The position numbers were made by a program, and so were the translations under genes. Positions 6,933-59,397 of a stretch of 64,000 bases of DNA are shown here, in pieces (position 1 is the stretch's first letter; every line of letters starts with the position of its first letter). This DNA is from Candidatus Omnitrophota bacterium (GTDB lineage Bacteria > Omnitrophota > Gorgyraeia > Gygaellales > JAQTUX01), in contig JAQTUX010000001.1 in the NCBI GenBank assembly GCA_028707125.1, positions 269,639 through 333,638 on the forward strand, read 5' to 3'. The notes under the pieces are model-generated. The model saw nothing but the letters and a program-made list of their open reading frames with translations, did no database searches and had not been told where the DNA came from.

Positions 6933-7709
6933 ATGTCCGGTTATTTTCTGAGGCTAATCAAGGCGCGGCATATTCTGCGAAGCATGGTCCTGAAGAACTT
7001 GAAGGACAAATATGTCGGCTCAACACTGGGTATCTTCTGGGCGGTGATAAACCCCCTGTTGATCATGTCGGCCGTATCCTTTGTTTTCACTCAGGTGATG
7101 CAAACCCCGATACGGCGCTACCCGCTGCTGGTATTAAGCGCCTACCTTCCCTGGAATTTCTTCGTTAACTCCGCCACTGAAAGCGCCGCCTGCATAAGGC
7201 AGAATCAAGGCATACTCTCTCAATACACCATCCCCCGCGAGGCCATACCCGTATCAGTCGCGCTCGCCGATTTCCTGAACTTTTTATTCGGATTCGCGGC
7301 GATGCTGCCGATATTCATCTTCATGAACAGGGGGGCCGCGGGATGCCTGTGGCTGCTGCCTTTGGTAATGGCCCTGCATCTGGCATTCACCGTCGGGATC
7401 TCCTTATTGTTCAGCATCATCAATATATATTTCAGGGATTTTTCCCAGCTCCTGGGAGTGGGAATGCTGTTCTGGTTCTGGGTCACGCCGGTCTTCTACA
7501 CCCTGGAGATGATGCCTGCCGGCCTTCGCGGGGCATTCCTGGCCAACCCCGCCACATGCTATACGGTTATTTACAGGGAATTATTATATAACGGCCGCTG
7601 CGGCGGCATATCCATGTGGGTATTGGCCGTTATCTTCGCTTTGGCGAGTTTGGCGGGTGGATACATCTTATTTGCCGCCAAAGAAAAGGATATCCTCAAG
7701 CATATTTAG
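6933..7709 (+). CDS. ABC-2 type polysaccharide/glycan export permease (Wzm/TagG-like)
   Basis: 258 aa, 6 predicted TM helices, ABC-2 permease signature region. Stop immediately followed by the ATPase gene start. Confidence 0.75.
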   Translation: MSGYFLRLIKARHILRSMVLKNLKDKYVGSTLGIFWAVINPLLIMSAVSFVFTQVMQTPIRRYPLLVLSAYLPWNFFVNSATESAACIRQNQGILSQYTIPREAIPVSVALADFLNFLFGFAAMLPIFIFMNRGAAGCLWLLPLVMALHLAFTVGISLLFSIINIYFRDFSQLLGVGMLFWFWVTPVFYTLEMMPAGLRGAFLANPATCYTVIYRELLYNGRCGGISMWVLAVIFALASLAGGYILFAAKEKDILKHI

Positions 7710-42983: not shown

Positions 42984-44177
42984 ATGAACATCCTGATGGT
43001 CCATCCTCATGATCTGTTCTCGGCGTCCGAACCTTGGACCATACGCATTGTTTCCATCGCCAGGGAATTTGTTAAAAGCGGCCACGGGGTAAAGCTGGTA
43101 TATTTTCCGCTGGAATGGGAAGGCCGTAGGCCGCGTAAACTTGGCCCCCATATTGACTGCTATCCCTTTTGCCGCAGGTCCGGCCCGCATATTTTAGCCG
43201 CCAATACCCTGCGCCTGTCAAAGTTAGCGGCCTGGGCGGATATCGTGCATTTTCAGAAGTGCTTCCATCAAGCGTCTATCCCCAGCATTATCGCGGCCCT
43301 GTTGAATAACAAGCCGCTTCATTATGATTGGGATGATTGGGAGGCCAAGATCTATGAGATCTCCACGCGGCCGGGTTTCTTAAGCTGCCTCATCCGGAAT
43401 TTCCTGGGTGCCCTTGAGGCATTTATCCCGCGGATAGTTGATACGGTGTCCGTTGCCAGCCGTAGATTAGAAATAGAGTGCAGGCGCCTGGGGGTAGGGC
43501 CGGACAGGATATTTGAGGCCCATGTCGGCGCAGATATTGACAGGTTCCGCCCCGATATTTCGGGTTCGGCGGTAAGGCGGCGCTATAATATAGGCAAGCC
43601 GCTTGTTTTGTATCTCGGCCAGCTTCACGGCGGCCAGTATGCCGAACTGTTCATCAGGTCCGCGGCAAAGATAACCCGCGGTTCCGGCCAGGACGCCGTG
43701 TTCATGATAGCGGGCGACGGATACCGGCGGCGGGAATTGGAAGAGCTCAGCCGCGGCCTGCGGCTTAACGGAAGCATGATCTTTACCGGGCCGGTCCCCC
43801 ATAGCGATGTCCCCGAATACATCGCCGCCTCCGACATATGCGTCGCCTGCTTTGAGAAGAACGACGTTACCTTGTGCAAGAGCCCTCTTAAGATAGCCGA
43901 ATATATGGCTTCGGGAAAGGCGATAGTCACCAGCGATGTGGGAGAGGCGCCGCGCATGGTAGGGCAGGCGGGGTTGATCACGGCCCCGGGAGACCCTGAT
44001 TCGTTAGCCGAGGGGATATTAAAGCTTCTGAGGCGGGAGGGTCTAAGGAAAGAGATGGCTTCGCGCAGCCGCCTGAGGGCGGAAGAGAAGTATAATTGGG
44101 CTGTAACGGCAGCGAATCTGATGCGGGCATACGGGAAGGCGGCGCGGATAAAAGGCCGCAAGGGAGGAAGGTCCTGA
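42984..44177 (+). CDS. Glycosyltransferase family 4 (GT-B, GT1-like)
   Basis: C-terminal EYMASGKAIVTSDVGEAPRMV (E-X7-E region); two-Rossmann layout; HVGADIDRFRP. Confidence 0.7.
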   Translation: MNILMVHPHDLFSASEPWTIRIVSIAREFVKSGHGVKLVYFPLEWEGRRPRKLGPHIDCYPFCRRSGPHILAANTLRLSKLAAWADIVHFQKCFHQASIPSIIAALLNNKPLHYDWDDWEAKIYEISTRPGFLSCLIRNFLGALEAFIPRIVDTVSVASRRLEIECRRLGVGPDRIFEAHVGADIDRFRPDISGSAVRRRYNIGKPLVLYLGQLHGGQYAELFIRSAAKITRGSGQDAVFMIAGDGYRRRELEELSRGLRLNGSMIFTGPVPHSDVPEYIAASDICVACFEKNDVTLCKSPLKIAEYMASGKAIVTSDVGEAPRMVGQAGLITAPGDPDSLAEGILKLLRREGLRKEMASRSRLRAEEKYNWAVTAANLMRAYGKAARIKGRKGGRS

Positions 44178-44179
44178 CA

Positions 44180-46561
44180 ATGAATACTACCGTTAAAACG
44201 CGGAGGCCGGCGGAAAGGATCATTTTCGCGGCCATCCTGCTTCTTATAATAACCGTGCCTTTGATCTTCAGCGGCAAAACCAGCCAGATATACGGGCTTA
44301 TCAAGATCGCCGCCATGGAATTCCTGCTTATCCTGCTTACGGGCCTTTGGGTCTTTAAGATGAACCGCAGGGGGGATTTTAAGATCATTTTTACTCCGGC
44401 AGGTATACCTTTGTTGATCTTCTCCCTTATTTGCGCGTTATCACTTTTGCGCGCCATAAATCTGCGGGAAGGGATAGTGCATCTGGCGCAGGTTTTATCT
44501 TACGTCGCCCTTTTCTTCATAGTAGTAAATAATATTGAATCTAAAAAAGAGGTCTCGCTGATAGTTAACGCCGCGATCTTGACGGCATTTTTGAGTTGTA
44601 TCTACAGCATGTACCGCGACCAGGGCCCTTATCTGTTTACCGCCATACGCCAGACATATATATCTACCTTCGGCCATCCGGTATTCTTCGCTCAGTTCCT
44701 GGGGCTTGTCGCGCCTGTGTGCCTGGCGGTTTTTCTGCAGAGCAAAAGCCTCCGGTCCAAACTATGCAGCGGCATCGCCCTGGCCACGCTCTTCTTCTTT
44801 TTATTATTGACCAAGGCAAGGGGGGCGTGGCTTGGCCTCATATGCGCCTCGCTTGTTGTCATTTTCATCCCGGCGGTTATGCATAAAGAGCGCAGATATA
44901 GATTCTTCCGCTTCATCCCCTGGAAAAGCATAGGCATATTCCTTCTTTGCCTTTTACTGCTTTTTTCCGGCCTGTCCGTATTCGCCCATTTCCGCGTCTG
45001 GCATAAGGAGATGGTAGAGCGTTTTTATTCGGCATTCAGCCTTTCCCATGTAACCAACGTAATGCGCGTTGAGGTATGGAAGAATACCTGGCAGATGATC
45101 ATGGGCAGCCGTTTATCAGGGGTGGGCGCGGGGAATTTTCCCGTTATTTATCCTGCTTACCGCAGCGTGGCCGAGATCTCGATCACGCCGGAAGGCAGGA
45201 CGTATTTAAGCGCCCATAACGATTACCTGCAGGTCCTGGCTGAGACGGGGATATTCGGCCTGGCCTGTTTTATGTTCATTATTTATTCTTTATTCAGAAT
45301 GGGCATATCTGTCCTGAAGAAGACCGGGGACAGGGACCTGTATTATATAACTCTGGGTATCCTGGGCGCGATCAGCGTGATCCTCGTGTACGCGCTTTTT
45401 AACCCTTCTTTTCAGATCCCTTCCACGGGAATGATATTCTGGCTTTGGGCGGGGTTGCTCGGCGTATTATACAAGAAGGAGTGCCTGTCCGCGCGCGAAG
45501 AGGCAGCTCCGAAGCCGAAGGGCCCTCTGGCCCAAAGCGCGATACTGGCGGTTACCTCAGCCGCGGCCATATATCTGGCCGCGCTGCTGATCAGGCATTT
45601 TGCCGCCGACTTATATTTTACCAAGGCAAGAGCATATAGAGAATCGGGGAGAGGGCTGGAGGCGATAAGTATCCTGGAAAGGTCCGCCCTGCTTTATCCC
45701 GGTAATTACGAAGCATATTTTTTGCTGGGGAACTATTACCAGGAACTGGAAAGGTTTAATGAGGCGTTCGCCCAGTATGAGGCCGCCCTGGAATTGCATC
45801 CGTACCAACCGATCGTTTTTAATAATCTGGGGACGGTATATTTTAAGACAGGGCAGTATCAGAAATCTGCCGTGGCCTTTAACAGGGCGGTAGACCTTAA
45901 TCCCCGCTACTTCGGGGCGTATTACAATCTTTATCTGGCCTATAACGCGATGGGGCAGCAGGAGAAGGCCCAGGAGTGCATACGCCTGATCTATGAGTTA
46001 AAGCCCGATTTCCTGGGCGGGATGTATATGGATCAGGAACAGTATGATGCCGCGATCGTGGCCTATGCCGCGGCTATTGAGAAGGATCCCGGAAATTACG
46101 GAGCGCATTTTAATCTGGGCCTGACCTATAAGATGAAGGGCCTGGATGATGAAGCGGCCGATGAATTCAGGAAGGCGATCGCGCTTAAGCCGGACCACGT
46201 GGGGGCTTACCGCAATCTGGGATTTCTGTTGTTTAAGAGTTTCAAAAGATATGATGAGGCAATAGAGATCCATAAGAAGCTGCTGGCCTTGGTGCCGGTG
46301 GATATAGAAGGCCACCTGAACCTCGGCCTGCTGTATACGGAGTCGGGAGATCACGCGCTCGCGGAACAGGAATTCAGGAAAATAATCGGGCTTAATCCTT
46401 ATTACGGCAAGGCCCATACCGCGCTGGCGGCGCTGTACCGCAGGCGGAATGATTTAGACGCTGCGGTCAGGGCGCTCAAGGAGGCGCTGGCGATAAGCCC
46501 GGAATCCTCCGAAATAAAAGTGATGCTGAACGATATTTATAAAGAAAAATTAATGCGGTAG
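44180..46561 (+). CDS. Wzy_C / O-antigen ligase family membrane protein (ligase or O-oligosaccharyltransferase-like) with C-terminal TPR domain
   Basis: About 11 TM helices; Wzy_C hallmark AHNDYLQVLAETGIFGLACFMFIIY. C-terminal ~350 aa has at least 8 TPRs (YFLLGNYYQELERFNEAFAQYEAALELHPY..., AYRNLGFLLF...). Start set at the Met at 44180, three nt after the upstream stop (ORF track begins at 44096). Confidence 0.8.
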   Translation: MNTTVKTRRPAERIIFAAILLLIITVPLIFSGKTSQIYGLIKIAAMEFLLILLTGLWVFKMNRRGDFKIIFTPAGIPLLIFSLICALSLLRAINLREGIVHLAQVLSYVALFFIVVNNIESKKEVSLIVNAAILTAFLSCIYSMYRDQGPYLFTAIRQTYISTFGHPVFFAQFLGLVAPVCLAVFLQSKSLRSKLCSGIALATLFFFLLLTKARGAWLGLICASLVVIFIPAVMHKERRYRFFRFIPWKSIGIFLLCLLLLFSGLSVFAHFRVWHKEMVERFYSAFSLSHVTNVMRVEVWKNTWQMIMGSRLSGVGAGNFPVIYPAYRSVAEISITPEGRTYLSAHNDYLQVLAETGIFGLACFMFIIYSLFRMGISVLKKTGDRDLYYITLGILGAISVILVYALFNPSFQIPSTGMIFWLWAGLLGVLYKKECLSAREEAAPKPKGPLAQSAILAVTSAAAIYLAALLIRHFAADLYFTKARAYRESGRGLEAISILERSALLYPGNYEAYFLLGNYYQELERFNEAFAQYEAALELHPYQPIVFNNLGTVYFKTGQYQKSAVAFNRAVDLNPRYFGAYYNLYLAYNAMGQQEKAQECIRLIYELKPDFLGGMYMDQEQYDAAIVAYAAAIEKDPGNYGAHFNLGLTYKMKGLDDEAADEFRKAIALKPDHVGAYRNLGFLLFKSFKRYDEAIEIHKKLLALVPVDIEGHLNLGLLYTESGDHALAEQEFRKIIGLNPYYGKAHTALAALYRRRNDLDAAVRALKEALAISPESSEIKVMLNDIYKEKLMR

Positions 46562-46567
46562 GTCGAT

Positions 46568-47398
46568 ATGTGCGTGAGCGTATATATCCCCGCGTACAAC
46601 GCGCAGGGCAGCATAGAAAAGAGCGTCAGGTCCATATTGAGCCAGTCCTGCCCCATAGATGAGATAATGGTCATAGACGACGGCTCCACCGACCGGACAG
46701 CGCAGATCGCCGCCGGCCTCGGCGTAAAGGTGATCCGCCATAGCCGGAACAGGGGGATCGCGGCGTCCCGTAATACCGCCCTCAAGGCCGTAAAGAGCGA
46801 GTTTGCCGCCTCCATAGACGCGGATTGCGTCGCCGAGAGCCGTTGGCTGGAGAAATGCCTGCGCCATTTTAACGACCCCGGCATCGCCGGCGTGGGAGGG
46901 GCAATGGCAGAGAGCGGGCGTTCTCTGCCGGACAGGTGGCGGGCGGTAAACCTGCGGCAAAACAATTGGAAAGGCGCTGACAGCGCGGTCCCTTTTCTTG
47001 CCGGCTGCAATACCGTGTACAGAAGAAGGGCGCTGTTGGATGCGGGGTTGTTCGACGAGAGGTTCAGGTCGCATCATGAGGACAGCGATATGGGCCGGCG
47101 CCTGCGCGAGAAAGGGGCTGTTTTACGTTATCTGCCGCATGCCATGGTCACGCATATAAAGGAAGATACGCTTTATTCGGTGATGAGGTCATGCTGGGGG
47201 TTCAGGCATAAGGCGGCGCCGCAGACATTGGCGGCGTTTACCGGAGATATCCTTGCCGATTGCAGGCATTACGTTTCAATTGTGCTCAGGGATGTCCGGA
47301 ACAGGGAATTGCGCCTTTTGCCGATAGACCTTGCATATTTATTTTTTCAGGCGTATTTTTCAATGAAATATTTCGCGCGGCAAGGCCGCATTAAATAA
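46568..47398 (+). CDS. Glycosyltransferase family 2
   Basis: VSVYIPAYNAQGSIEKSVRSILSQSCPIDEIMVIDDGSTDRT; DADCV motif. Confidence 0.8.
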   Translation: MCVSVYIPAYNAQGSIEKSVRSILSQSCPIDEIMVIDDGSTDRTAQIAAGLGVKVIRHSRNRGIAASRNTALKAVKSEFAASIDADCVAESRWLEKCLRHFNDPGIAGVGGAMAESGRSLPDRWRAVNLRQNNWKGADSAVPFLAGCNTVYRRRALLDAGLFDERFRSHHEDSDMGRRLREKGAVLRYLPHAMVTHIKEDTLYSVMRSCWGFRHKAAPQTLAAFTGDILADCRHYVSIVLRDVRNRELRLLPIDLAYLFFQAYFSMKYFARQGRIK

Positions 47399-48378
47399 TG
47401 ACAGCCAAACCGTTAGTGTCTTTATTGATCGTCAATTACAACGGGCGGCAGCTTCTTCCCGCTTTATTTTCTTCCATTGAGCGCCTTGATTATCCCCGGG
47501 AAAGGCTGGAGGTTATTTTTGTGGACGATAATTCAAGCGACGCATCGGTCGCCTTTCTGCGCGATAAATACCCCGGCATAAAAATAATCGAGAACAGGAA
47601 GAAGCTGGGCCCGGCCGGAGCAAGGAACGCGGGCATGCTTCGGGCGCGGGGAGAGTTTGTGGCCACGCTGGATAACGATGTGGTCCTTGACCCTGGCTGG
47701 CTGAAGCCGCTGGTGGAATTCATGCAAGGCGACGCGAACACGGGGGCCTGCGCTTCAAAACTGCTTTTTTATGACGATAAAGAGGTCATCAACGGAGCCG
47801 GAGGCATCGTGAACATATACGGCGACGGGATGGACAGAGGCATATTCCAGAAGGATTCAGGCCAGTATGATAAGCCCGAGCGGGTATTCTTTGCCTGTTC
47901 CGCGGCAATGCTGCTGCGCAGGAGCGTTATTGAGCGGATCGGCCTCTTTGACGGGGATTATTTTTATCTATATGAAGACCTGGATTATTGCTGGAGGATA
48001 AACCTGGCGGGATCCAAGGTCGTCTATGTCCCTTCCGCGGCCGCATACCACGGGTTTTCCCGGACGATGAAAAGGGATACCCTGCGGGTAAAATACCTCC
48101 TTGAGAAAAACCGGCTTACGACGCTCCTGAAAAATTACAGCTTATGGACGCTGGCGCGCCTTTCCGCGGGGCTGTTAAGGCACAGGTTTAGAAAGGCGTC
48201 TCTGCCCAGGGAGGGAGGGCATCCGGCCCTGGTCCTGTTCGCCGTCGGTTTAACCGCCTGGCTGTGGAATATCGCCAACGCGGGGCGGATCATTAAAAAG
48301 CGCTTATGGGTACAACGGCATGTGAGGAAGATAGGCGATCGCGAGATCGCCCGTCTAATGTGCGATGGAGCGATTTAA
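47398..48378 (+). CDS. Glycosyltransferase family 2
   Basis: VSLLIVNYNGRQLLPALFSSIERLDYPRERLEVIFVDDNSSDAS; LDNDVV; YLYEDLDYCWR. Confidence 0.8.
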   Translation: MTAKPLVSLLIVNYNGRQLLPALFSSIERLDYPRERLEVIFVDDNSSDASVAFLRDKYPGIKIIENRKKLGPAGARNAGMLRARGEFVATLDNDVVLDPGWLKPLVEFMQGDANTGACASKLLFYDDKEVINGAGGIVNIYGDGMDRGIFQKDSGQYDKPERVFFACSAAMLLRRSVIERIGLFDGDYFYLYEDLDYCWRINLAGSKVVYVPSAAAYHGFSRTMKRDTLRVKYLLEKNRLTTLLKNYSLWTLARLSAGLLRHRFRKASLPREGGHPALVLFAVGLTAWLWNIANAGRIIKKRLWVQRHVRKIGDREIARLMCDGAI

Positions 48379-49492
48379 GGACATAAAAGTAGCGATAGTC
48401 CACGATTATTTAAATCAATACGGCGGCGCGGAAAGATGCCTGGAGATATTCCACCGGCTGTTTCCCCGCGCCCCGGTATTTACGCTGTTATACGACAAAG
48501 ACGCGCTTCCTCAATACAGGGATTGGGATATCAGGACGTCTTTTATCCAGGGCATCCCTTTTGCCGGGCGTTCATACAGGAATTTTATGTGGCTTTTTCC
48601 GCTGGCGATGAGGCGCCTTGACTTGAAGGGGTTTGACCTTATCTTGAGCAGTACTCACGCCTGGGGCAAGGGCATAAGGACAGGGCAGGGCAGCTGCCAC
48701 ATCTGTTTTTGCCTTACCCCCATAAGGTATTTCTGGGATCTATATGATGAGTACAGGCGCAATTACCACTTTAGCCCGCTTATGCGCCTGAGCCTGCCCT
48801 TGTTTGTCAACTCTATCCGCAGATGGGACCTTAAAATGTCGCGGCAGGTAGATTATTTTATCGCTATATCCAAGGTGGTATCCGGCAGGATACGCAGGTT
48901 CTATGCGAGAGAGTCATCTGTAATATACCCTTCTATTGACACCTCTTTTTTTTCCCCCTCCAACACCGGCGCAGACGGCGGCTATTATTTAAGCGTGTGC
49001 CGCCTGAAGGAATACAAGCGCGTGGACCTGATAGTAGAGGCGTTCAACCGCCTGAAATTGCCGCTGAAGGTCGCGGGCAGCGGGGAAATGGCCGCGAGAT
49101 TAAAAAGGAACGCCGGGCCCAATATAGAGTTTGTGGGCCCGGTGTACGGCAACGGCCTGCGCGATCTTTATCAGGGCTGCCGGGCGCTGGTCTTCGCCGC
49201 CAATGAGGACTTTGGGCTGGTGCCGCTTGAGGCCCAGGCCTGCGGACGGCCTGTGATCGCCTTTGCCGGGGGCGGGGCGCTGGAGACGGTTATTGAAGGG
49301 GTGACGGGCACGTTTTTCCGGGAGCAGGACGCGCGGTCGTTGATAGAGGCGGTTACCAGGTTCCAGCGGATGAGATTTGATGCCGCCGCGATACGCCGGA
49401 ATGCCGCGCGTTTTGACAACGCCAGATTTGAGACGGAATTCCTGGATTTTGTATATAAGCGGTACGAAGAATTCAACAGGGCAAAGGCATAG
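48365..49492 (+). CDS. Glycosyltransferase family 4
   Basis: KVAIVHDYLNQYGGAERCLE; EDFGLVPLEAQACGRPVIAFAGGGALETV. Confidence 0.8.
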   Translation: MERFKDIKVAIVHDYLNQYGGAERCLEIFHRLFPRAPVFTLLYDKDALPQYRDWDIRTSFIQGIPFAGRSYRNFMWLFPLAMRRLDLKGFDLILSSTHAWGKGIRTGQGSCHICFCLTPIRYFWDLYDEYRRNYHFSPLMRLSLPLFVNSIRRWDLKMSRQVDYFIAISKVVSGRIRRFYARESSVIYPSIDTSFFSPSNTGADGGYYLSVCRLKEYKRVDLIVEAFNRLKLPLKVAGSGEMAARLKRNAGPNIEFVGPVYGNGLRDLYQGCRALVFAANEDFGLVPLEAQACGRPVIAFAGGGALETVIEGVTGTFFREQDARSLIEAVTRFQRMRFDAAAIRRNAARFDNARFETEFLDFVYKRYEEFNRAKA

Positions 49493-49494
49493 CG

Positions 49495-50121
49495 ATGCGA
49501 AGGCCATATCTATTGATCAAAAGATCCGCCGATATAATCGCCGCCTCAGTGCTCCTGTTGCTGTTTTCCCCGTTATTTATAATACTGGGCCTGTTGATCG
49601 GCATGGATTCCGGCGCCCCTGTTTTTTTCAGGCAGACGAGGATAGGCAGGAACGGACGGAGGTTTAACATCTATAAATTCAGGACAATGCGCGAAGGCGC
49701 GGACAGATCGCAGGATCAATATGCCGATCTTAATGAATGGCCGCGGCCTTTATTCAAGGTCCGCAATGACCCGCGCCTTACCCGCATAGGCGCGCTCTTG
49801 CGCGACACGAATTTAGACGAGCTGCCGCAGCTGCTCAATGTTTTAAAGGGCGATATGAGCCTTATCGGGCCCCGCCCCTTTCAGGCAAACGAGGTGGATC
49901 TTTCCGACCGGCGGCAGCGCGGGCGCCTGGAGATCCTGCCCGGCATGGTCTCGCTGTGGCACGTGTCGGGCCAATACAGGCAGGGTATGAGTTTTGACGA
50001 GTGGATGGAGAGCGACCTGCGCTACGCAAGGGATATTTCTTTGTTTCTGGACGCGCAGATCCTGTTGAGGACTATCAGGATGTTAGGCCGGCACATTATT
50101 TTGAAGTTTTCCCTACGCTGA
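49495..50121 (+). CDS. Undecaprenyl-phosphate sugar phosphotransferase (bacterial sugar transferase, WbaP C-terminal-domain type; initiating enzyme)
   Basis: [57 protein letters not shown]; [21 protein letters not shown]. Confidence 0.8.
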
Positions 50122-50134
50122 TAATCAACACATT

Positions 50135-51283
50135 ATGATAAGCAGGGCTTGGAAGGTATTTTTATTGCTGTTGGGCGTAAAGGCCCTTACTCTAGGGCAG
50201 AAATGCGTCATCCCCGCCGTATACGCGATGGAGAAGATCCATCTTAGCAAGCCCGGAGAACGCAAGGTCCTTTCATCCGATGTTGCCGTAGTCAAAGGCA
50301 TGGATATAGGCGCCTTGACCAGGCGCGCGATAGACCTGATCGGCGGCATGAAGTCAATAGTCAGGAAGGGGGACAAGGTCTTCATAAAACCGAATTATGT
50401 CACAGGGGGCCTCGACGGGCACGACCCCGTGGCTGCAGGCGAGATAGCCCACCCGGCTGTGGTGGCGGCGGTTGCCGAGGAATGCGTAAAGGCGGGGGCC
50501 AGAGAGGTGGTCATCGGAGAATGGGTTGAGCGGCCGGTAGCGATAAACTTCGGCGGCAGGGAGGGCAGGGAAGGGGCGCAGGTAAAGCACAGGATAGACC
50601 TGCTGAACAAGAAATACGGGAATAAGATCTATCTTGTCAATCTGATGAACCGCACTTCGTATTTCAAGTATGTGCCTTCGCAGACCTCGCTCAGGTTCTT
50701 AGCCATACCTAACCTGGTCGCCGAGGCAGATGTGATTATTTCGATACCTTCCCTGAAGACGCATCATAAACCCTGCCCGGTCAGCTTGGGGATGAAGAAT
50801 TTTATGGGGATCATGCCTTCCATCTTTTACGGCGAGCCGCGCAGGAAACTCCATGAGGCGGGCGTACACCAGATCATCGTAGATATCAATAATGCGCTTA
50901 AACCTGACCTGGTTGTTGTTGACGGCAGCTTCGGCATGGAAGGCAGAGGGGCTTCTGTTTTTCTGGGAGGGGAACCGGTTGACGTCAGCAAGCGCATCGG
51001 AGGATACCTTGTGATCGCGGGCACGGATCCAGTTGCCACCGATGCCACGGCAACGCGTATTATATCCAGAAACTGGACGCCTGTTCCGGAAGCCGGCGTG
51101 CTGGGCGCGCCCTGGTATGTGCATCATATCAGGATGGCCCATGAACAGGGGTTAGGCAACATAGGCGCCGATCTCATAAATATCAAAGGGGACACTTCTC
51201 TGGAAGGCGTATCCATGAATTGGAAACAGTCGGATGACGGGGTGTATCCGGAAAGGCCGGGCGATAAATATGAAGCGTGGTAG
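50135..51283 (+). CDS. DUF362-family protein
   Basis: VAVVKGMDIGALTRRAIDLIGGMKSIVRKGDKVFIKPNYV...SLKTHH pattern typical of DUF362. Confidence 0.5.
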   Translation: MISRAWKVFLLLLGVKALTLGQKCVIPAVYAMEKIHLSKPGERKVLSSDVAVVKGMDIGALTRRAIDLIGGMKSIVRKGDKVFIKPNYVTGGLDGHDPVAAGEIAHPAVVAAVAEECVKAGAREVVIGEWVERPVAINFGGREGREGAQVKHRIDLLNKKYGNKIYLVNLMNRTSYFKYVPSQTSLRFLAIPNLVAEADVIISIPSLKTHHKPCPVSLGMKNFMGIMPSIFYGEPRRKLHEAGVHQIIVDINNALKPDLVVVDGSFGMEGRGASVFLGGEPVDVSKRIGGYLVIAGTDPVATDATATRIISRNWTPVPEAGVLGAPWYVHHIRMAHEQGLGNIGADLINIKGDTSLEGVSMNWKQSDDGVYPERPGDKYEAW

Positions 51284-52211
51284 AAGGGCCGGACTGGCCG
51301 TTCTTTTCGCGGCCGCCCTGTCCAATTGCCTTGTTTTCGCCGGCGATCGCGGGTTGGTCAGGCATGCCGTTGAGGCAAAGGGGGGCTGGGAAAGGGGGAT
51401 AGTCTTAAAAAGGGCGGTGTTGTTGACGGATAAGAACAACGCCGGCGCTGCCATAGATTTTGAAGTGCCTGTTGACGGAGATTATCAGCTTTACGCTTAT
51501 GTTTATCACAACTGGAGGAAGTATACGCCGTTCATTCATTTTGAAGCGCGGGATGCGGCAGGGGTTTTGCATGCCGGCTATATGTTTTTTGAGCATTGCT
51601 GGTATCTGGACAAAAGCCAGCCGGGCAGATGGCTGATGCATTCTCCCAACGCCATGCCGTTTTGGCGGCTGCCTAAGGGCAGGCTTTCCTTGCGTTTCCG
51701 GGCTACGGGCAGGGATTCCATGTGGGATCAGGATGATTCCGGAATGGAAGGCGTCATTGCTTTGGAGACATTGATATTGGTCCCGGTATCGGACGGCTTC
51801 TCCGCAAGCCCCATGGACCCGGAGTTCTTGCAGGGAGGGGCGCGGGATATGGTATATTCTGAAGACCACGGAACAGGGATAGCCGTGATCTCAGAAAACA
51901 AAGTTTCTTATCGGGGGATCAAGCTCCCGGTATCGGGAAACTACGCGGCGCTGTTCTCGCTCTATTCGCAGGGGCCCTATAAGCTTGAGGTGTCGTTCAG
52001 CAAAGGCGGAGTTGATCGGAACTTTATCATTGAAGATCAGGCCGCTTCATCTTTATGGCGAAACGCGGTCTCCGGCCAGTTTTATATCGAGGCCGGAGAT
52101 TATACCGTGGGGTTAAGAGATATGTCCGGATCAGCTGCCGGTAATGGAATGGCGGTCGACTACTTTATTCTTATGCCGTTGCCGAAGGAGGCGCATGGAG
52201 AGTTTGAATGA
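51270..52211 (+). CDS. Secreted protein with two tandem beta-sandwich (CBM-like) repeats, function unknown
   Basis: Signal peptide MKRGRRAGLAVLFAAALSNCLVFAG. Two related halves (DGDYQLYAYVYHNW... / SGNYAALFSLYSQG...EAGDYTVGL). Start set at the Met at 51270, shortly before the upstream stop (ORF track begins at 51234). Confidence 0.45.
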   Translation: MKRGRRAGLAVLFAAALSNCLVFAGDRGLVRHAVEAKGGWERGIVLKRAVLLTDKNNAGAAIDFEVPVDGDYQLYAYVYHNWRKYTPFIHFEARDAAGVLHAGYMFFEHCWYLDKSQPGRWLMHSPNAMPFWRLPKGRLSLRFRATGRDSMWDQDDSGMEGVIALETLILVPVSDGFSASPMDPEFLQGGARDMVYSEDHGTGIAVISENKVSYRGIKLPVSGNYAALFSLYSQGPYKLEVSFSKGGVDRNFIIEDQAASSLWRNAVSGQFYIEAGDYTVGLRDMSGSAAGNGMAVDYFILMPLPKEAHGEFE

Positions 52212-53067
52212 CCAGATCAGATCCATAAAGAAGCGTATGCGGGCAGTACCAGGTTTAGTTATAGATAACTTTGGCCTGTCTTCGCATCTTGGGAAGCGGC
52301 TTTCCCCGGGATGCCGCGCCTGCAAGGAGAACAAGTGGACGACCGTCTTTATCGGCAAGGCCTGTAATTGTTCATGCTATTTCTGCCCTCAGCCGCATAA
52401 AAAGCCGGCCCTGGGAAGCAGGGAAGATAATGACGGTATGATCAGCACAAGTTTCTCAAGGGAATCTTTTGAGCATCTTTTAGTTAAGCTGAAGAACGCG
52501 GCCCATAACGGCTCCATACGCGCGGTGGGATACTCCGGAGGCGACCCCCTTCTTTATGCCGAAAGGATTATTTATTTTGCCGGAGAATTAAACGACTCCG
52601 CCCCATCTTTATATCAATATATTGAAACCAATGCCAGATCGCTGAACAAGAAAATGGCAGGGGAACTTCGCGGCGCCGGCATCAAAGAAATACGCTTTAA
52701 TCTTGCCGCCACGGATTATTCTCCGTCGATAATAAAGAAGATGAAATACGCGAGGAAGGCCATGCCTTTTCTGACGGTTATCCTTCCGGCGTTAAGGCAG
52801 ACGCCAAAAATGATCGCGAGGCATATCGGAGAATTTATTGACATCGGGGTAGACCAGATCACTTTATGCGAGATGGTCGTCAACAGCAACAATGAACGCT
52901 ATTTCAAAGGCGAGTCCTTTTACAGTATGGGTAATGAAGAAAGGTATCCGATTTTCAGCAGGCATGTGATATACGACGTTATGAGCACCGCCGCTAAAGA
53001 GAAGTGGCCAATTACCATTAACGAATGCTCCGCCTTGAATCATCAGAAACCCGGCCCGCTGTTCTAA
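52195..53067 (+). CDS. Small radical SAM protein (activase-like), extra upstream CXXC
   Basis: GCRACKENKWTTVFIGKACNCSCYFCPQP (CX3CX2C preceded by CXXC); GYSGGDPLL. Start set at the Met at 52195, just before the upstream stop (ORF track begins at 52144). Confidence 0.6.
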   Translation: MESLNDQIRSIKKRMRAVPGLVIDNFGLSSHLGKRLSPGCRACKENKWTTVFIGKACNCSCYFCPQPHKKPALGSREDNDGMISTSFSRESFEHLLVKLKNAAHNGSIRAVGYSGGDPLLYAERIIYFAGELNDSAPSLYQYIETNARSLNKKMAGELRGAGIKEIRFNLAATDYSPSIIKKMKYARKAMPFLTVILPALRQTPKMIARHIGEFIDIGVDQITLCEMVVNSNNERYFKGESFYSMGNEERYPIFSRHVIYDVMSTAAKEKWPITINECSALNHQKPGPLF

Positions 53068-53085
53068 GGGCCCGACAGGACTAAC

Positions 53086-54105
53086 GTGATACAGATCAAG
53101 CCAGAGCGGATAAAACGGCTGCGCGCGACGCTAGACGATATTTCTTACGATGTTATAAGCAGAGATGTCGGAGAGGCAGCGGCACACCGGCTTCCGGAAA
53201 AGATCAAGGTATTTATCGATCTTTTTGTTTTGGGTTCAAGTATCAAGCCGCCCTTGGTAAAAAAGGCCCTGGGAAGACAGTCCTTTGAGGATCTGTCGCG
53301 CCTTGGCCTTATCAGCTCTGATAAAGAGCGCGTAAAGCCCAAATACAGGATAAGGTCGTTTAATAATTATTACTTTTTATATGAAAAAGGCAGCAACAGG
53401 CATATAGATTTCGTGTACCTGGATCAGGATTCTTTTCATCTGGCTGAAAACCTTCCCTATAATTTCAAAGCTAAAAACGCGCTTGACCTGTGCACGGGAA
53501 GCGGCATACAGGCGGTCCTTTTATCAAAAACAGCCGAACGCGTCACCGCGGTTGAACTGTCTTCCAGAACCGCGGAGGTGGCGCGGTTTAATATCATATT
53601 GAACGGGCTTTCAAAGAAAGTATCGGTATTGCAGGGTGACATATACGCCCCCGTGGGCAGGCGCAGGTTCGACCTTATCGTTTCCAACCCGCCCTTTATG
53701 CCTGTGCCCGACAATATAACCTATCCGCTTTGCGGCAGGGGAGGAGAAGACGGGCTGCTGGTCAGCCGAAGGATAATCGACTCGTTGGACAAACATTTGA
53801 CCAGAAAAGGCCTGGCGGTCTTCTTAAGCATTACCTTTGGCGACAGATACGCCCCGTTTATCCTTAAGAACCTTGAATCTGCCGCCAAGAGGGATGATTT
53901 TGACGTTGACCTCATTTTATTCAGGCGCACCCCAAAACACTCCGAGATATCGGGAAGGGCGGCCACCTTGCGTAAAGATAACGGCGTAAACCCGCTGGAT
54001 GAGATGAGGCGGATCTACAAACAGGCGGGCGCTGACCACATTTACGTGTATCTTGTGAAGATTAAAAGGGGCAGCGGCTCTGTGAGGGTCATAGACCTAT
54101 GTTGA
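53086..54105 (+). CDS. Class I SAM-dependent methyltransferase with NPPF motif (HemK/PrmC-like N5-Gln / N6-amino methyltransferase family)
   Basis: Motif I ALDLCTGSGIQAV; motif IV FDLIVSNPPFMPV. GTG start assumed. Confidence 0.65.
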   Translation: MIQIKPERIKRLRATLDDISYDVISRDVGEAAAHRLPEKIKVFIDLFVLGSSIKPPLVKKALGRQSFEDLSRLGLISSDKERVKPKYRIRSFNNYYFLYEKGSNRHIDFVYLDQDSFHLAENLPYNFKAKNALDLCTGSGIQAVLLSKTAERVTAVELSSRTAEVARFNIILNGLSKKVSVLQGDIYAPVGRRRFDLIVSNPPFMPVPDNITYPLCGRGGEDGLLVSRRIIDSLDKHLTRKGLAVFLSITFGDRYAPFILKNLESAAKRDDFDVDLILFRRTPKHSEISGRAATLRKDNGVNPLDEMRRIYKQAGADHIYVYLVKIKRGSGSVRVIDLC

Positions 54106-54153
54106 AAGTCCTTATGCTTCAGTTATCCGTAACCGGCAGCGTTGTTTGATTAA

Positions 54154-55731
54154 ATGAATAAGGTACCCTATACAAAATCAATGTTCATCAAAGACATGCT
54201 TTTAAGCCGGAGAAAGCTGGCGGTTTATATCCATATACCGTTTTGCCGGCGCAAATGCGCGTATTGTTATTTCTTTTCGCGCGCCGGATCAACCCTGTCC
54301 GAACGAGACAGCTATATCCGAAAGGTATGCGATGAGCTGCGCATTTACAGCGAGGTATTCCGGAGGCGGCGCGACAGCATAGCGGCGGTGTACATAGGGG
54401 GCGGCAGTCCTTCTTTGCTTAATAAGAGGCAATTGAGATCCCTGTTGTCCTGCATAGATGAGGTTATAAGGCCGGCAGAATTCCCTTCCGTTAAACAGCT
54501 CACTGTGGAGGTGAACCCCGAGATGTTCGCGCGGCGGGAATGTGAGGAAAAACTGGCTATAATGAAGTCGTATTCGGTCAACCGCCTTAGTTTTGGCGTC
54601 CAGGCCTTTAACAATGCCGTGCTCAGAAAGAATGGGTGCATTCACCGCCTGTCGCATATATACAATGCGGTCAATAAGGCAACGCTTAACGGATTCAGTT
54701 ACAATATTGACCTGATGTTCGGCCTGCCGGGAAGCGATTTTGGGTCGTGCATTGATACCATATTTTCCGCGATAGGCATACTGCCGCCCCATATTCAGCT
54801 CAACGCCCCCATTCATTACGTGCGCGGCAACAGGCCGTCCGGCCGCGTGCTTAGCCCCGTAGCGCAGGGCCTGCTGGCCATGATCGCCAGGATACTGTTG
54901 TTGAAGCTGCGTTATGGCCATAGCCCGTACCGTTATTTAACAGAGCTTTCGTTAAAGCGCGATGACCTGAATGTATTTTCGCATCTCCAATGGACGGGGT
55001 CTTCAGACGTGATAGGGATCGGTTCTTCCGCGCGGTCAGTGTATATTAAACGCAATATTATCGCGCGGAATACGGCCGATACCCGCAAGTATTGCATGAG
55101 CGATAGGGAATTTACTTTTGACAAGGCGAACTTCAATTATAAGCGGCTGCTGAAGCAGGGAGTTATAGAAGAATTCTTTAAGGAGAGATTGATAAAACCG
55201 CCCCTGCCCCTGCGCCGTTGCGGCAAGGTTATTATACGCAAAAAGAGCGCGGCCTATGTTCTGGCAGTTTTAAAAGGCATAGAAAGCGAGGTCAACGGCT
55301 TAAGTGACGCGGCATTTTTCCATTACCGTCAGGCCATGGATATTATACCCGGTAATTCTCTCGCGTACTTTTGTATGGCTGACCTGTTCCTGCTCGAAGG
55401 CAGGCCCGGCCCGGCCCTGGAATATATCAGCGGCTTTCCCCTGAATAATAACAGCGCGCGGATGCTTTCAATCCTGTTCTTGCTGGCGAAGAATGCCGGA
55501 GAGGAAAGATGCGTAAGGATACTGGCAAAGAAACTAAAGGATGACGGGGTGGAAATTAACGGGCTGGATATAAGGCATTATCACTATGCAGGCCTTCGCC
55601 CTCCGATAAAGCGCATGCGCCGGCTATTTAAGGAGTGCAGAGCGCTGGCGCGGATGTGCGGGATGACATTAGATTTTAAAGATCCCCTTAAAAGGGAGCA
55701 TGAGGGATTAAAACTTATTAAATCATTATGA
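54154..55731 (+). CDS. HemN-like radical SAM protein with C-terminal helical (TPR-like) extension
   Basis: LAVYIHIPFCRRKCAYCYF; AAVYIGGGSPSLL; LSFGVQAFN are HemN/HemW-family hallmarks. Extra ~170 aa C-terminal helical region (FFHYRQAMDIIPGNSLAYFCMADLFLLEGRPGPALEY). Confidence 0.7.
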   Translation: MNKVPYTKSMFIKDMLLSRRKLAVYIHIPFCRRKCAYCYFFSRAGSTLSERDSYIRKVCDELRIYSEVFRRRRDSIAAVYIGGGSPSLLNKRQLRSLLSCIDEVIRPAEFPSVKQLTVEVNPEMFARRECEEKLAIMKSYSVNRLSFGVQAFNNAVLRKNGCIHRLSHIYNAVNKATLNGFSYNIDLMFGLPGSDFGSCIDTIFSAIGILPPHIQLNAPIHYVRGNRPSGRVLSPVAQGLLAMIARILLLKLRYGHSPYRYLTELSLKRDDLNVFSHLQWTGSSDVIGIGSSARSVYIKRNIIARNTADTRKYCMSDREFTFDKANFNYKRLLKQGVIEEFFKERLIKPPLPLRRCGKVIIRKKSAAYVLAVLKGIESEVNGLSDAAFFHYRQAMDIIPGNSLAYFCMADLFLLEGRPGPALEYISGFPLNNNSARMLSILFLLAKNAGEERCVRILAKKLKDDGVEINGLDIRHYHYAGLRPPIKRMRRLFKECRALARMCGMTLDFKDPLKREHEGLKLIKSL

Positions 55732-57464
55732 GGGCCAATTCAAATAACCTGATACTTGCCTCCGCGCTGATATTGGTCGTTATCGTCCGTTTTCAAGGTT
55801 TGGGCAGCGGGCTTCCTTTTCAGTTTGTCAGGGGCGAACCCATAGGCTTTACGGCAGCGCGCGTGCGGGGGCTGGATATAAAGTCAATGCGGGGCCGGTA
55901 TCCCAATTTCCTGCCGATAAGCATAAAGATCGCCGAAGGCGTATTGAGCTATCTAAAGCTGGATAAGCCGATCCTCGCCGCTTATGGACTTTCGCCCCGG
56001 GAAGAAAAAACGTCATTTTTCCTTTCTCAGATAATCTGCCGTTTTTATTCGGCTTTGTTCGGGATAATGGGGATCATCGCTGTATTTCTATTTTCTAAAC
56101 GGTATTTGTCATACACCGTGGGGCTCATTGCCGCGTTTCTGCTTTGCGTTCACCCGCTCCACTTTTTTTACTCCCATTTTGACACGCCCCATATCACGCA
56201 GTCATTTTTTATAATCCTGACCGCCTTTGCCGGATATAACGCGCTGCGAAGAATGAGTGTTGTTAACTTTCTGGCACTCGGCCTGGTTTCCGGCCTGACG
56301 GCTTCAACGCTGCAAAACGGCCTTCTGACATTACCCTTTTTCTGCTGGTTGTTTTTTTATTCTCAGAAGGGCAGGGCCTTTTCCGGGAAGGATTGGCGCC
56401 TTCTTTTTGCAGCGCTGGCGGCCTTCGGCTTATGCGCCCGCATGGTGGGTTATTCATCCGCGTCCACAGGGGGAGATTCGCTTCGTTTCGGTTTTCTCAC
56501 GAGCCCGGATATGCCGGCAATCGTCTTGAATAACGCGCACGAGATATTTTTAAGGGAGTTTGGATTCAAAGGGTTCCGGTTTATGGGATACATCTTGATG
56601 CGCACAAGCCCGGTTATGCTGCTGTTCGCCGTTTTCGGCGGCGTTATGATATTGCTTGACAAAAAAAGGCTTAAGTCGTATCTGCCTTTATTTGTGCTTT
56701 ATGGTCTGTTCATATTCGCTCACGGGACATATAATATGACCACAGAGCGTTATTTTACCGAACCGCTGCCGCTTATGGCGTTGTTGGCGGCGGAGACGGT
56801 CATATTTTTAAAAGAGCGGATAGTCCAGCGTTTCCCCATGAGGCGCGGATGGCTGGCGGCGTCTGTGCTGGTGGTTTTTATCGCTGCCCCCATGTGCCTT
56901 AGGGATGCCGGCATAAATAATTTCCTGAAAAGCAAGAGCACATATACGTTGCTATACGAATGGATGGTGGATCAACGACGGTCATTCGAAGGCAAAAGGG
57001 TGCTTTTTCTGACGAATGTCGGCATGCAGAATGAATCCCTGTTCTTTAAGGCGGCAGACATTATTTTTACCCACAGTAATGTATTTTCCGGAGACAGGCA
57101 AGGTCTGCTTAAGGCGGCTGCCGGGCAAAAGATAGATTATATTATTACTTCAGAATCGTCGTGTTCCTTGCAGCTGCGTGAGGGGGCCTTTCAGCTTCTG
57201 CCGGAGTTTCCTGGATTCGCCAAAATGATAAAGACATTTAACCCCTTAAGGAAGGCGCCTGTTTCAGCCGTGCCCATTCTTGAGGAATGCAGGCAGCTCG
57301 CCTATGAGGAGCGGCTTTACGGCGTGACATTGAAGCAGGATTATTTGTGCTCGGCGATGTTTTTTAGCGCCCTGAGCTATAATATGCACCTGTATTACAG
57401 GCACGCGGAGCGCCCCGGGCCGATGCTTGCCGTGTACAGGGTAACAGCGGAAGATAATGATTAA
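55728..57464 (+). CDS. Polytopic GT-C fold glycosyltransferase, ArnT/PMT_2 (GT39/GT83-like) family
   Basis: About 12 TM helices. LLCVHPLHFFYSHFDTPHITQ resembles the ArnT/PMT_2 HPPLYY-type first-loop motif. Large C-terminal soluble domain. Confidence 0.5.
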   Translation: MRANSNNLILASALILVVIVRFQGLGSGLPFQFVRGEPIGFTAARVRGLDIKSMRGRYPNFLPISIKIAEGVLSYLKLDKPILAAYGLSPREEKTSFFLSQIICRFYSALFGIMGIIAVFLFSKRYLSYTVGLIAAFLLCVHPLHFFYSHFDTPHITQSFFIILTAFAGYNALRRMSVVNFLALGLVSGLTASTLQNGLLTLPFFCWLFFYSQKGRAFSGKDWRLLFAALAAFGLCARMVGYSSASTGGDSLRFGFLTSPDMPAIVLNNAHEIFLREFGFKGFRFMGYILMRTSPVMLLFAVFGGVMILLDKKRLKSYLPLFVLYGLFIFAHGTYNMTTERYFTEPLPLMALLAAETVIFLKERIVQRFPMRRGWLAASVLVVFIAAPMCLRDAGINNFLKSKSTYTLLYEWMVDQRRSFEGKRVLFLTNVGMQNESLFFKAADIIFTHSNVFSGDRQGLLKAAAGQKIDYIITSESSCSLQLREGAFQLLPEFPGFAKMIKTFNPLRKAPVSAVPILEECRQLAYEERLYGVTLKQDYLCSAMFFSALSYNMHLYYRHAERPGPMLAVYRVTAEDND

Positions 57465-58497: not shown

Positions 58498-58515
58498 AAC
58501 AAAGGGAACATCCGG

Positions 58516-59382: not shown

Positions 59383-59397
59383 TTTAAGGGTGGGGTT

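Follow-up and report, generated by a model that had tools for sequence, protein, structure and literature searches.

A Wzy_C ligase fused to tetratricopeptide repeats and linked to tail-fibre-like proteins: a candidate ABC-transporter-dependent protein O-glycosylation system in Candidatus Omnitrophota

Known targets of protein O-glycosylation by enzymes of the Wzy_C type are pilins, general periplasmic substrates and the S-layers of Gram-positive bacteria. The S-layer systems of Geobacillus stearothermophilus and Paenibacillus alvei comprise WsaP, glycosyltransferases (GTs), the Wzm/Wzt ABC transporter and either WsaB or WsfB; WsfB carries a C-terminal tetratricopeptide repeat (TPR) motif, and WsaB is accompanied by a separate upstream TPR protein, WsaA (PMC2943079). 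A pilin gene adjoins 21 of 31 pglL homologues (PMC3643930). Here, we describe a 64-kb stretch of contig JAQTUX010000001.1 from a Candidatus Omnitrophota bacterium (the window), which encodes a Wzy_C-family protein with a long TPR tail, a Wzm/Wzt-type exporter and part of a giant tail-fibre-like protein. Genes are designated below by the position of their first nucleotide in the window (table 1), the ligase gene being 44180. On the basis of the sequences, we propose with a probability of roughly 55 per cent that the locus specifies an ABC-transporter-dependent O-glycosylation pathway of the WsaB/WsfB type, aimed at the tail-fibre-like surface protein.

The window is essentially one plus-strand operon of more than 64 kb. 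Its genes are tightly spaced or overlapping; it opens inside the fibre gene and ends inside a radical S-adenosylmethionine (rSAM) gene. Family scans (Pfam and NCBIfam) covered the plus-strand open reading frames (ORFs) of at least 150 aa, and the statements on families absent from the window refer to this set. The genes named in the preliminary description of the segment 42984–57464 were all recovered where it had placed them: GT4, Wzy_C with TPRs, two GT2, a second GT4, Bac_transf and PMT_2. The ABC-2 exporter that it included is also present, and is of the Wzm/Wzt type, but lies outside this segment, upstream at 6933–10421. The Thr/Ser/Gly-rich fibre of more than 2000 residues that it reported at 3–6179 is an open frame of 2058 aa with 21.7 per cent Ser + Thr and 13.6 per cent Gly. 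The gene content, namely a polyprenyl-phosphate glycosylphosphotransferase (PGT), four GTs, a Wzm/Wzt pair and a Wzy_C ligase with periplasmic TPRs, is that of an ABC-transporter-dependent pathway, as had been suggested.

In the pathway that we propose, the Bac_transf enzyme 49495 would transfer a sugar 1-phosphate onto undecaprenyl phosphate at the cytoplasmic face of the membrane. The two GT4 and two GT2 enzymes (42984–49492) would lengthen the chain, which the methyltransferase 53086 may cap or decorate, and the Wzm/Wzt pair would carry the complete glycan, linked to undecaprenyl pyrophosphate (Und-PP), to the periplasmic face. There, 44180 would use its WaaL-like site (R214, R296 and H346) to transfer the glycan en bloc from Und-PP to Ser or Thr residues of the exported fibre, its TPR superhelix acting as a docking platform for the fibre. 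Further single sugars may be added in the periplasm by the GT-C protein 55728 from polyprenyl-phosphate-linked sugars, and O-acyl groups by the membrane-anchored GDSL-TPR proteins. We infer the acceptor and the order of the steps, as well as the roles given to the GT-C, GDSL and methyltransferase proteins and any that the DUF362 and U32 proteins may have.

The protein 44180 matches Wzy_C (PF04932) over residues 200–365, with 71–72.5 bits against a gathering score of 31.7, and many TPR families over residues ~475–790. An identical 793-aa gene call is recorded in a Logan assembly. The preliminary description had set this protein beside the PglL, PilO and WsaB O-oligosaccharyltransferases; classification with hidden Markov models (HMMs) confirms the generic Wzy_C family and places the protein neither with PglL nor with the WaaL equivalog. 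No WaaL equivalog is matched in NCBIfam, where the transmembrane (TM) domain recalls only IctB (75 bits, cut-off 366). A single-sequence search of the PDB with 44180 gave no match, and a membrane-domain profile based on 13 relatives found one sequence only, the WaaL of Cupriavidus metallidurans (CmWaaL, 7TPG/7TPJ; E 1.8e-17).

The catalytic residues are conserved. R214, R296 and H346 of 44180 correspond to R224/R298/H349 of Neisseria meningitidis PglL and to R215/R288/H338 of Escherichia coli WaaL, which are essential in that enzyme and conserved in PglL (PMC3643930). R214 is present in 13 of 15 sequences, and R296 and H346 are invariant (alignments A1 and A2); the three regions align with the RGA, vRlkiW and aHND motifs of CmWaaL. 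The PglL signature H400-x3-E404-x-P406 is absent, 44180 having Y404-x3-N408-P409 instead. The exact HxxxExP motif is found in a more distant relative (P0008), and an Asp or Glu occupies the E404 position in three others (P0005, P0007 and P0009).

The AlphaFold2 (AF2) model of 44180 has 12 WaaL-like TM helices, a 13th TM helix (residues 449–488) and then ~9–10 TPRs (~320 aa). Given this 13th helix and a cytoplasmic, basic N-terminus, both the TPRs and the catalytic loop should be periplasmic, so that the model would place the TPR superhelix on the side of the catalytic loop. The long periplasmic TPR tail announced in the preliminary description is consistent with this topology. Its statement that O-oligosaccharyltransferases of this family, WsaB included, often carry such extensions agrees with the literature for PglL and WsfB, and fails for WsaB, whose TPRs reside in the separate protein WsaA (PMC2943079).

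The link between the ligase and a fibre is based on the gene neighbourhoods of its relatives. One genome per species was scanned, with 10-kb flanks, using the narrower alignment A3 as query, A2 being too diverse; the counts given for the genome and metagenome scans are among the 600 pattern matches listed. The exact 44180 protein and a variant of 97 per cent identity occur in short assemblies only. The next relative, P0002 (44–45%), lies on a 5-kb metagenome contig (L007:1–4895) with the same gene order as the window: rSAM556 (54% identical), GT4 (56%) and Wzy_C-TPR (44%). The linkage of the ligase to rSAM enzymes, as well as to glycan genes, thus recurs in at least one additional lineage. The nearest relatives with usable flanks are found in loci L010 (34%), L011 (37%) and L012 (33%, labelled Omnitrophota), and all three have a fibre-type gene directly upstream of the Wzy_C gene, on the same strand. 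The L010 fibre (566 aa) carries three GxVGIGT motifs and a VTSAIQTQL motif, and the exported L012 fibre (2240 aa) has ten strict motif copies; both possess Sec-type signal peptides. In L011, the upstream gene is a 508-aa ORF (L011:7004–8530) in which a ComM-like N-terminal ChlI domain is joined to a fibre C-terminus of ~290 aa. We rejected its assignment as a ChlI/ComM protein and retained this chimeric ORF as a fibre remnant, which makes it weaker evidence than the other two; the chimera is either a true rearrangement or a misassembly of the metagenome-assembled genome (MAG). The sigma factor/SpoVG/DprA/ComM block beside it is permuted relative to L010.

ORFs with multiple copies of GxVGIG[TSA] were confined to L010–L012 among 1177 ORFs of 82 genome loci, and there were none among 727 ORFs of 80 metagenome loci. 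Only two ORFs had a single motif, both on the opposite strand and several kilobases from distant relatives. Within 10 kb on either side, L012 has in common with L010 and L011 only the fibre, Wzy_C and TPR genes. The Wzy_C and TPR parts form a single, fused ORF in L010 and in the window, and two ORFs in L011 and L012. Neighbour-joining analysis of the membrane domains unites the window protein with P0002, P0003 and the L010, L011 and L012 proteins in one clade (97 per cent bootstrap support), and the Omnitrophota Wzy_C-TPR proteins encoded in ordinary glycosyltransferase clusters (L021 and L024) fall outside it. No glycan-synthesis genes occur within 10 kb of the L010 and L012 ligases; the ligase gene is therefore coupled to the fibre gene, as pilO/tfpO is to pilA. 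Directly downstream of the L011 ligase are a WecA-like gene, a Wzm/Wzt pair, whose ATPase is 42 per cent identical to 7710, and a GT2 gene, whose product is 33 per cent identical to 47398, so that L011 looks like a compact version of the window system. The 566-aa fibre-like gene of L010 is directly preceded by a gene for a giant protein of 7256 aa, rich in Ser, Thr and Asn and composed of repeated modules (L002/L010:1–7911), which could be another acceptor in this genome.

Outside the clade, several relatives are neighbours of pilin-like genes. The best metagenome relative among the matches listed (L090, 32%) is preceded by a prepilin gene of 185 aa (N_methyl + DUF1559) that ends 6 nt upstream; P0006 (L004; 28%, from a Syntrophales MAG) is encoded within a type IV pilus/MSH-like cluster and adjoins two pilin-like genes; and prepilin-like genes are one or two genes away in L026 and L038. 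The window contains no pilin gene, and prepilin adjacency is limited to these relatives outside the clade. It was through such adjacency that TfpO/PilO and most PglL homologues were recognized. The tie between ligase and fibre put forward in the preliminary description gains from the fibre/Wzy_C/TPR triad in the ligase's own clade and from the prepilins beside distant relatives, and receives no support from the PglL HMMs. Other family members come from MAGs whose labels (unverified) name monoderm lineages, namely Clostridia, Actinomycetota, Heliobacteriaceae and Chloroflexia; a lipid A-core ligase would have no substrate in such lineages, which lack lipopolysaccharide (LPS). In a MAG labelled Actinomycetota, a stretch of 11 kb contains three Wzy_C-TPR paralogues, of which two are neighbours (L025:3063–14008). 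Downstream of the gene for the relative P0005 come a Peptidase_U32 gene and then a DUF362/Lar_N gene (L006:10001–14435), a resemblance to the window that we set aside as evidence: the families recur, but the genes are not BLAST-level orthologues of 57457 and 50135.

The proposed acceptor has a composition of 13.6 per cent Gly, 12.2 per cent Thr, 10.8 per cent Ala and 9.5 per cent Ser, without a single Cys in 2058 aa. It ends in a Peptidase_S74 intramolecular-chaperone domain and repeats the motifs GxVGIGT and ELNxVDGVTSAIQTQL. A module of ~75–105 aa (ELN[FY]VDGVTSAIQTQL...GNDSHDHT[AT]STISGLGV...) is present in three near-identical copies that start near residues 680, 1045 and 1354. The C-proximal module (residues ~1690–1840) is homologous to the fibres upstream of the L010, L011 and L012 Wzy_C genes; each of the four proteins has at the end of this module the motif D(L/V)(F/Y)(V/I)xxxLE(V/I)D(A/S)TAY, preceded by a short Ser/Ala/Pro/Gly-rich loop. 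This loop, rich in Ser, Thr, Ala, Pro and Gly, reads as follows in the window (~5430–5480, fibre residues ~1810–1826) and in L010, L011 and L012: VGTGTPGSATGAGDLYV; VGSPTVSHATANEDLFV; VGNNSAAPGNANGAEDVFI; IGAISPGHASGSPDLFV. By analogy with the low-complexity sites preferred by PglL-type enzymes, it might speculatively be a glycosylation site.

Matches of the fibre to phage tail fibres are restricted to short modules, the S74 chaperone and one other, and its best homologues cover 12–44 per cent of the query. Some of these homologues are in phage-like contigs, and seroconverting phages are known to carry O-antigen-modifying genes near their tail genes. The adjacency of fibre and Wzy_C could accordingly be a prophage relic, a tail-fibre gene left beside a lysogenic-conversion enzyme acting on O-antigen, with no substrate relationship between the two. 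However, the ORFs scanned in the 64-kb window matched no families of phage structural proteins, integrases or lysis proteins, and the flanks of L010–L012 contain cellular genes (sigma factor, SpoVG, DprA, ComM, HisG, DsbA and the 7256-aa giant protein). The L010 and L012 fibres, moreover, have Sec signal peptides, which phage fibres do not need. On this flank content and these signal peptides we rejected the prophage explanation, which we consider extremely improbable.

Several other observations weigh against protein O-glycosylation of the fibre, and a number of them would suit a different assignment, in which 44180 is a WaaL-type O-antigen ligase, the ABC-dependent O-polysaccharide is placed on lipid A-core and the fibre is a mere neighbour. 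Omnitrophota are presumably diderm, and an ABC pathway combined with a Wzy_C ligase is also the canonical, textbook route to LPS O-polysaccharide. CmWaaL, which has the catalytic triad in common with 44180, is its sole solved relative, both by sequence and by fold. PglL_A (PF15864) and Wzy_C_2 (PF11846) gave no hit in 44180 at E ≤ 10, the equivalent of the PglL residue E404 is Asn408 in the 44180 clade, and sequence models are known not to distinguish WaaL from O-oligosaccharyltransferases (PMC3643930). As regards the fibre, its gene is 38 kb from the ligase gene and is parted from the ABC genes by a 23S_rRNA_IVP gene; its N-terminus, with any signal peptide, is outside the window; and, judged by sequence, the protein is a mosaic with modules shared with phages. 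Two contexts of its best homologues, matching C-terminal modules, are phage-like contigs with no Wzy_C gene, so that the association of fibre and Wzy_C is not reciprocal and is seen from the ligase side only. Fibres were detected by motif and BLAST among crudely called ORFs. Finally, the L010, L011 and L012 Wzy_C proteins are mutually related (41–52% identical) and hence count as perhaps two or three independent observations.

The same search for PglL_A and Wzy_C_2 in the pilin- and fibre-linked relatives also gave no hit at E ≤ 10, and PilO likewise lacks these motifs (PMC3643930). Since no structure of an O-oligosaccharyltransferase has been solved, PglS itself having been modelled on WaaL (PMC12800693), WaaL is the expected top structural match for any Wzy_C enzyme. 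The architecture of 44180 speaks against a WaaL: at 793 aa it is about twice the size of that enzyme, not a stand-alone protein of ~400 aa with 12 TM helices, and it adds to these a 13th TM helix and a periplasmic TPR region of ~320 aa. It matches no WaaL-type model of NCBIfam, no lipid A or core families were found among the ORFs scanned in the 64-kb window, and the L010 and L012 ligases accompany a fibre gene without glycan or LPS genes. We therefore judge a WaaL-type ligase to be unlikely.

A second assignment within the family would make 44180 a Wzy-like polymerase, or a fusion of a polymerase with a scaffold, that serves a secreted or capsular polysaccharide. The Wzy_C family does include polymerases, and TPRs are described as a hallmark of polysaccharide export scaffolds (in a reference cited in PMC2943079), so that the TPR tail could be such a scaffold, as in BcsC, PgaA and AlgK. 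The more distant Omnitrophota Wzy_C-TPR proteins of L021, L024 and L099 are encoded in glycosyltransferase/PGT clusters. An ABC-2 exporter pathway, however, needs no Wzy, and among the ORFs scanned in the window no family match was obtained for Wzx, Wzz or another polysaccharide co-polymerase (PCP), an outer-membrane polysaccharide export protein (OPX, Wza) or a beta-barrel porin. From the lack of Wzx, Wzz/PCP and OPX matches, the glycan would be expected to end on a carrier rather than as free capsule or exopolysaccharide. The polymerase assignment also has to accommodate the WaaL/PglL His-Arg catalytic set, which is kept, and the ligases of L010 and L012, which have no glycan genes nearby; it is highly improbable.

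For the O-glycosylation pathway, the remaining glycan genes provide the following details. The stop codon of the GT4 gene 42984–44177 is 3 nt ahead of the ligase start. The Bac_transf enzyme 49495 matches TIGR03025 (240 bits) over its catalytic domain only and has a single N-terminal hydrophobic segment. The permease 6933 resembles most closely, in NCBIfam, the galactan Wzm/RfbD and KpsM models, both under the curated cut-off, and the ATPase 7710 the TagH and galactan Wzt models. In Pfam and NCBIfam, the ~660 C-terminal residues of this ATPase went unmatched; this extension could read the glycan terminus, by analogy with the carbohydrate-binding domains of Wzt proteins. The two GT2 proteins show only generic similarity to synthases of the ArnC/PpgS/DPM type and have no strong C-terminal TM segments. 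The operon encodes five GDSL/SGNH-TPR paralogues, including 19163, 32047, 41614 and 59398, whose domain content makes a periplasmic O-acyl modification possible.

The GT-C protein 55728 contributes little to the argument for O-glycosylation. It is identical to an NCBI protein annotated as 'glycosyltransferase family 39 protein [Candidatus Omnitrophica bacterium]' and matches PMT_2 (PF13231) just above the gathering score (31.3 against 26.1 bits). Its AF2 model is confident (predicted local distance difference test 81.6, predicted template modelling score 0.88) and includes a C-terminal alpha/beta domain. The top Foldseek matches are STT3/AglB, ALG9/12, ArnT, PglB and Pmt4, with similar scores (template modelling score ~0.5). 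By sequence, the protein appears nearly an orphan. A word-indexed search for homologues returned only 55728 itself, and an exhaustive HMMER search of 1.84 billion representatives gave 674 weak relatives, with only 14 proteins, including the query, reaching E 1e-10; the nearest relative is 26 per cent identical (E 2.6e-16). The Asp of loop 1, the first extracytoplasmic loop, is conserved in at least 90 per cent of the family (41-member alignment), and 55728 has Gly36 at this position, followed by Glu37 (VRGEP, against xPDE in the family; a few relatives also have xE); its activity is for this reason uncertain. No PMT (PF02366) or MIR domain and no ArnT equivalog was matched in Pfam or NCBIfam, and direct reading of the sequence revealed no WWDYG motif. 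The preliminary description had attributed 55728 to the protein O-mannosyltransferase superfamily: the GT-C assignment stands, through the PMT_2 hit and the fold, and a protein acceptor finds no support, given the missing MIR and PMT domains and the replaced Asp. Such a protein could take part in protein O-glycosylation, and just as well branch the exported glycan or modify a lipid.

The window contains 26 rSAM genes (10415–42825 and 52144–64000), 21 of them upstream of the glycan genes and interleaved with GDSL-TPR genes. Many encode SPASM paralogues of ~330–350 aa in tandem; four have B12-binding domains and two have N-terminal TPRs. TPR modules that cross-hit in BLAST are thus found on eight enzymes of the operon: Wzy_C-TPR, five GDSL-TPR and two TPR-rSAM proteins. 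A contig of the same organism (L009:12100–16677) corresponds to positions ~62890–67460 and extends past the end of the window. There, beyond the last B12-rSAM gene, it encodes a 93-aa PqqD-family protein, two SPASM-like rSAM proteins, a 67-aa product containing three Cys (MARKRKLKFDPQITKVKLHPEQAVLACQCWNTG...) and a further rSAM protein. The PqqD-family protein, of the recognition-element type of ribosomally synthesized and post-translationally modified peptides (RiPPs), scores 34 bits against a cut-off of 23.4 and is located 3.4 kb past the window end. The association of PqqD, SPASM rSAM proteins and a Cys-containing ORF looks like the signature of a peptide-maturation module, and the PqqD protein and the TPR-rSAM proteins suggest that the rSAM battery acts, in part at least, on peptides or proteins. 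The preliminary description had the glycan heavily remodelled by this battery, a proposal that finds no support here, none of the analyses connecting the rSAM enzymes with the glycan itself. Since the fibre has no Cys, any rSAM chemistry on it would not be thioether formation.

These genes raise the question of whether the ligase, the GT-C protein or both might act on another acceptor made by the operon, such as an rSAM-matured peptide or an envelope component. The abundance of rSAM genes, the peptide module just downstream and the rSAM556–GT4–Wzy_C-TPR synteny in L007 are in keeping with this idea. The window, however, yielded no precursor peptide, an acceptor for a periplasmic Wzy_C enzyme would have to be exported, and the fibre linkage is the only association kept across the clade. 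We regard another acceptor as very unlikely. In a broader scheme, which seems to us distinctly unlikely, the whole operon would serve a host-dependent Omnitrophota cell as a 'tailoring factory' devoted to a single giant adhesin of the tail-fibre-like kind: the TPRs of the eight enzymes would dock on the fibre, radical chemistry would take place before export, and O-glycosylation and O-acylation after it. If true, this would amount to RiPP-like and glycoprotein maturation on a structural protein, a combination without described precedent.

The features of the window are compiled in table 1. The 750-bp gap between the fibre gene and the ABC genes has a lower GC content and holds the 23S_rRNA_IVP gene; no terminator-like site was found on the plus strand after the fibre gene. 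Beyond the genes listed in the preliminary description, the segment 42984–57464 encodes a DUF362 protein, an exported protein without family assignment (51234–52211, no match in the Pfam and NCBIfam scans), two rSAM proteins and an MTS-type methyltransferase. Downstream of 55728 are the Peptidase_U32 gene, one ORF without assignment, a GDSL-TPR gene and three further rSAM genes. A search of the Omnitrophota literature for this locus and for LPS ligases found neither.

Table 1. Features of the 64-kb window; positions are those of the window.
Feature	Position	Strand	Remarks
Giant tail-fibre-like protein, partial; proposed glycan acceptor	3..6179	+	S74 domain, repeated motifs
23S_rRNA_IVP gene, 132 aa, four-helix-bundle	6257..6655	+	between fibre and ABC genes
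Wzm-like ABC-2 permease, glycan export	6933..7709	+	ABC2_membrane E 1e-10
Wzt/TagH-like ABC ATPase, 903 aa	7710..10421	+	ABC_tran residues 29-160
GDSL/SGNH-TPR protein, membrane-anchored	41614..42825	+	Lipase_GDSL_2 + TPR, N-terminal hydrophobic anchor
GT4 glycosyltransferase	42984..44177	+	Glyco_trans_1_4 E 3e-27 / Glycos_transf_1
Wzy_C-family ligase fused to TPRs, 793 aa; proposed O-oligosaccharyltransferase	44180..46561	+	Wzy_C
GT2 glycosyltransferase	46568..47398	+	Glycos_transf_2 E 3e-35
GT2 glycosyltransferase	47398..48378	+	Glycos_transf_2 E 2e-31
GT4 glycosyltransferase	48365..49492	+	Glycos_transf_1 E 2e-24
Small monotopic polyprenyl-phosphate glycosylphosphotransferase, 208 aa	49495..50121	+	Bac_transf E 5e-60
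DUF362 protein, N-terminal hydrophobic segment	50135..51283	+	DUF362 E 2e-32
Protein with signal-peptide-like N-terminus	51234..52211	+	hydrophobic segment residues 19-37
rSAM genes	starts 52144 and 54154	+	family scan
Class I SAM methyltransferase, MTS type	53086..54105	+	MTS E 4e-14, DUF7059
Divergent GT-C_A membrane glycosyltransferase, PMT_2, 578 aa	55728..57464	+	PMT_2 31.3 bits
Peptidase_U32-family protein, UbiU/TrhP-like	57457..58497	+	Peptidase_U32 E 1.5e-27; UbiU 100 bits, below cut-off
GDSL/SGNH-TPR paralogue	59398..60798	+	TPR families + Lipase_GDSL_2, N-terminal anchor

Omnitrophota have no cultured members, and a role in host attachment is generally ascribed to their surface structures. 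If the proposed pathway is correct, giant surface fibres resembling phage tail fibres would constitute a new dedicated class of acceptors, Wzy_C-type protein O-glycosylation would extend to the phylum Omnitrophota, and a new clade of Wzy_C enzymes could be recognized by its gene neighbourhood. The triad of fibre, Wzy_C and TPR genes offers a bioinformatic handle on glycoprotein systems where sequence models fail to separate ligases from oligosaccharyltransferases. The locus may also hold a new pair of O-oligosaccharyltransferase and acceptor for glycoengineering, and its donor, coming from an ABC transporter pathway, suggests that 44180 may handle long polymers.

Among described systems, the S-layer O-glycosylation clusters share with the window a Bac_transf initiating enzyme, cytoplasmic assembly by enzymes of the GT2/GT4 type, a methyltransferase, a Wzm/Wzt pair and a Wzy_C transferase with TPRs. 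The contrast between WsfB and WsaA/WsaB in the arrangement of Wzy_C and TPR, fused or split, is mirrored by L010 and the window on the one hand and by L011 and L012 on the other. In both cases, the glycan cluster is co-oriented with the gene of a self-assembling surface protein. The hosts differ, a presumably diderm Omnitrophota bacterium as opposed to Gram-positive Bacillales, as do the acceptors, the putative one here being a tail-fibre-like trimeric fibre with an S74 chaperone rather than an S-layer lattice protein. The TPR region of the window enzyme (~320 aa) is much longer than that of the S-layer system, and the likeness to WsaB and WsfB is here one of feature lists. The window adds the rSAM genes, the five GDSL-TPR proteins and the GT-C enzyme.

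The PglL, PglS and TfpO (PilO) enzymes have in common with 44180 the Wzy_C domain, the Arg/Arg/His residues, ~13 TM helices and a periplasmic C-terminal domain. PglL-type genes often adjoin, and are co-oriented with, the gene of their target, as the relatives of 44180 in L090, L004, L026 and L038 adjoin prepilin genes; in the window, the gene of the proposed target, the fibre, is in the same operon, and no LPS core families were matched among the ORFs scanned. The differences from PglL are the lack of PglL_A and Wzy_C_2, the replacement of HxxxExP by Y-x3-N-P, a proposed target that is a fibre and not a pilin, and a donor supplied by an ABC-transporter pathway instead of a Wzx-flipped unit. 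With CmWaaL (PDB 7TPG/7TPJ), 44180 shares the catalytic residues and the Und-PP-glycan donor; WaaL, however, has ~400 aa and no TPRs and acts on lipid A-core, whereas the 44180 clade is linked to fibre genes.

The last comparison concerns GT-C enzymes of another type. TfpW, the pilin arabinosyltransferase of Pseudomonas aeruginosa, is a GT-C protein with C-terminal periplasmic TPRs, encoded beside the gene of its filament-protein substrate (bioRxiv 10.1101/2020.04.19.049825). As TfpW has both features, the logic of TPRs plus adjacency applies to protein glycosylation. TfpW is of the GT-C_A class (ArnT-like) and 44180 of the GT-C_B class (WaaL-like), and the GT-C_A protein of the window, 55728, is without TPRs. 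This protein shares the PMT_2 signature and the GT-C_A fold with ArnT, PMT and STT3, and differs from them by the missing WWDYG motif and by the Gly at the position of the loop-1 Asp.

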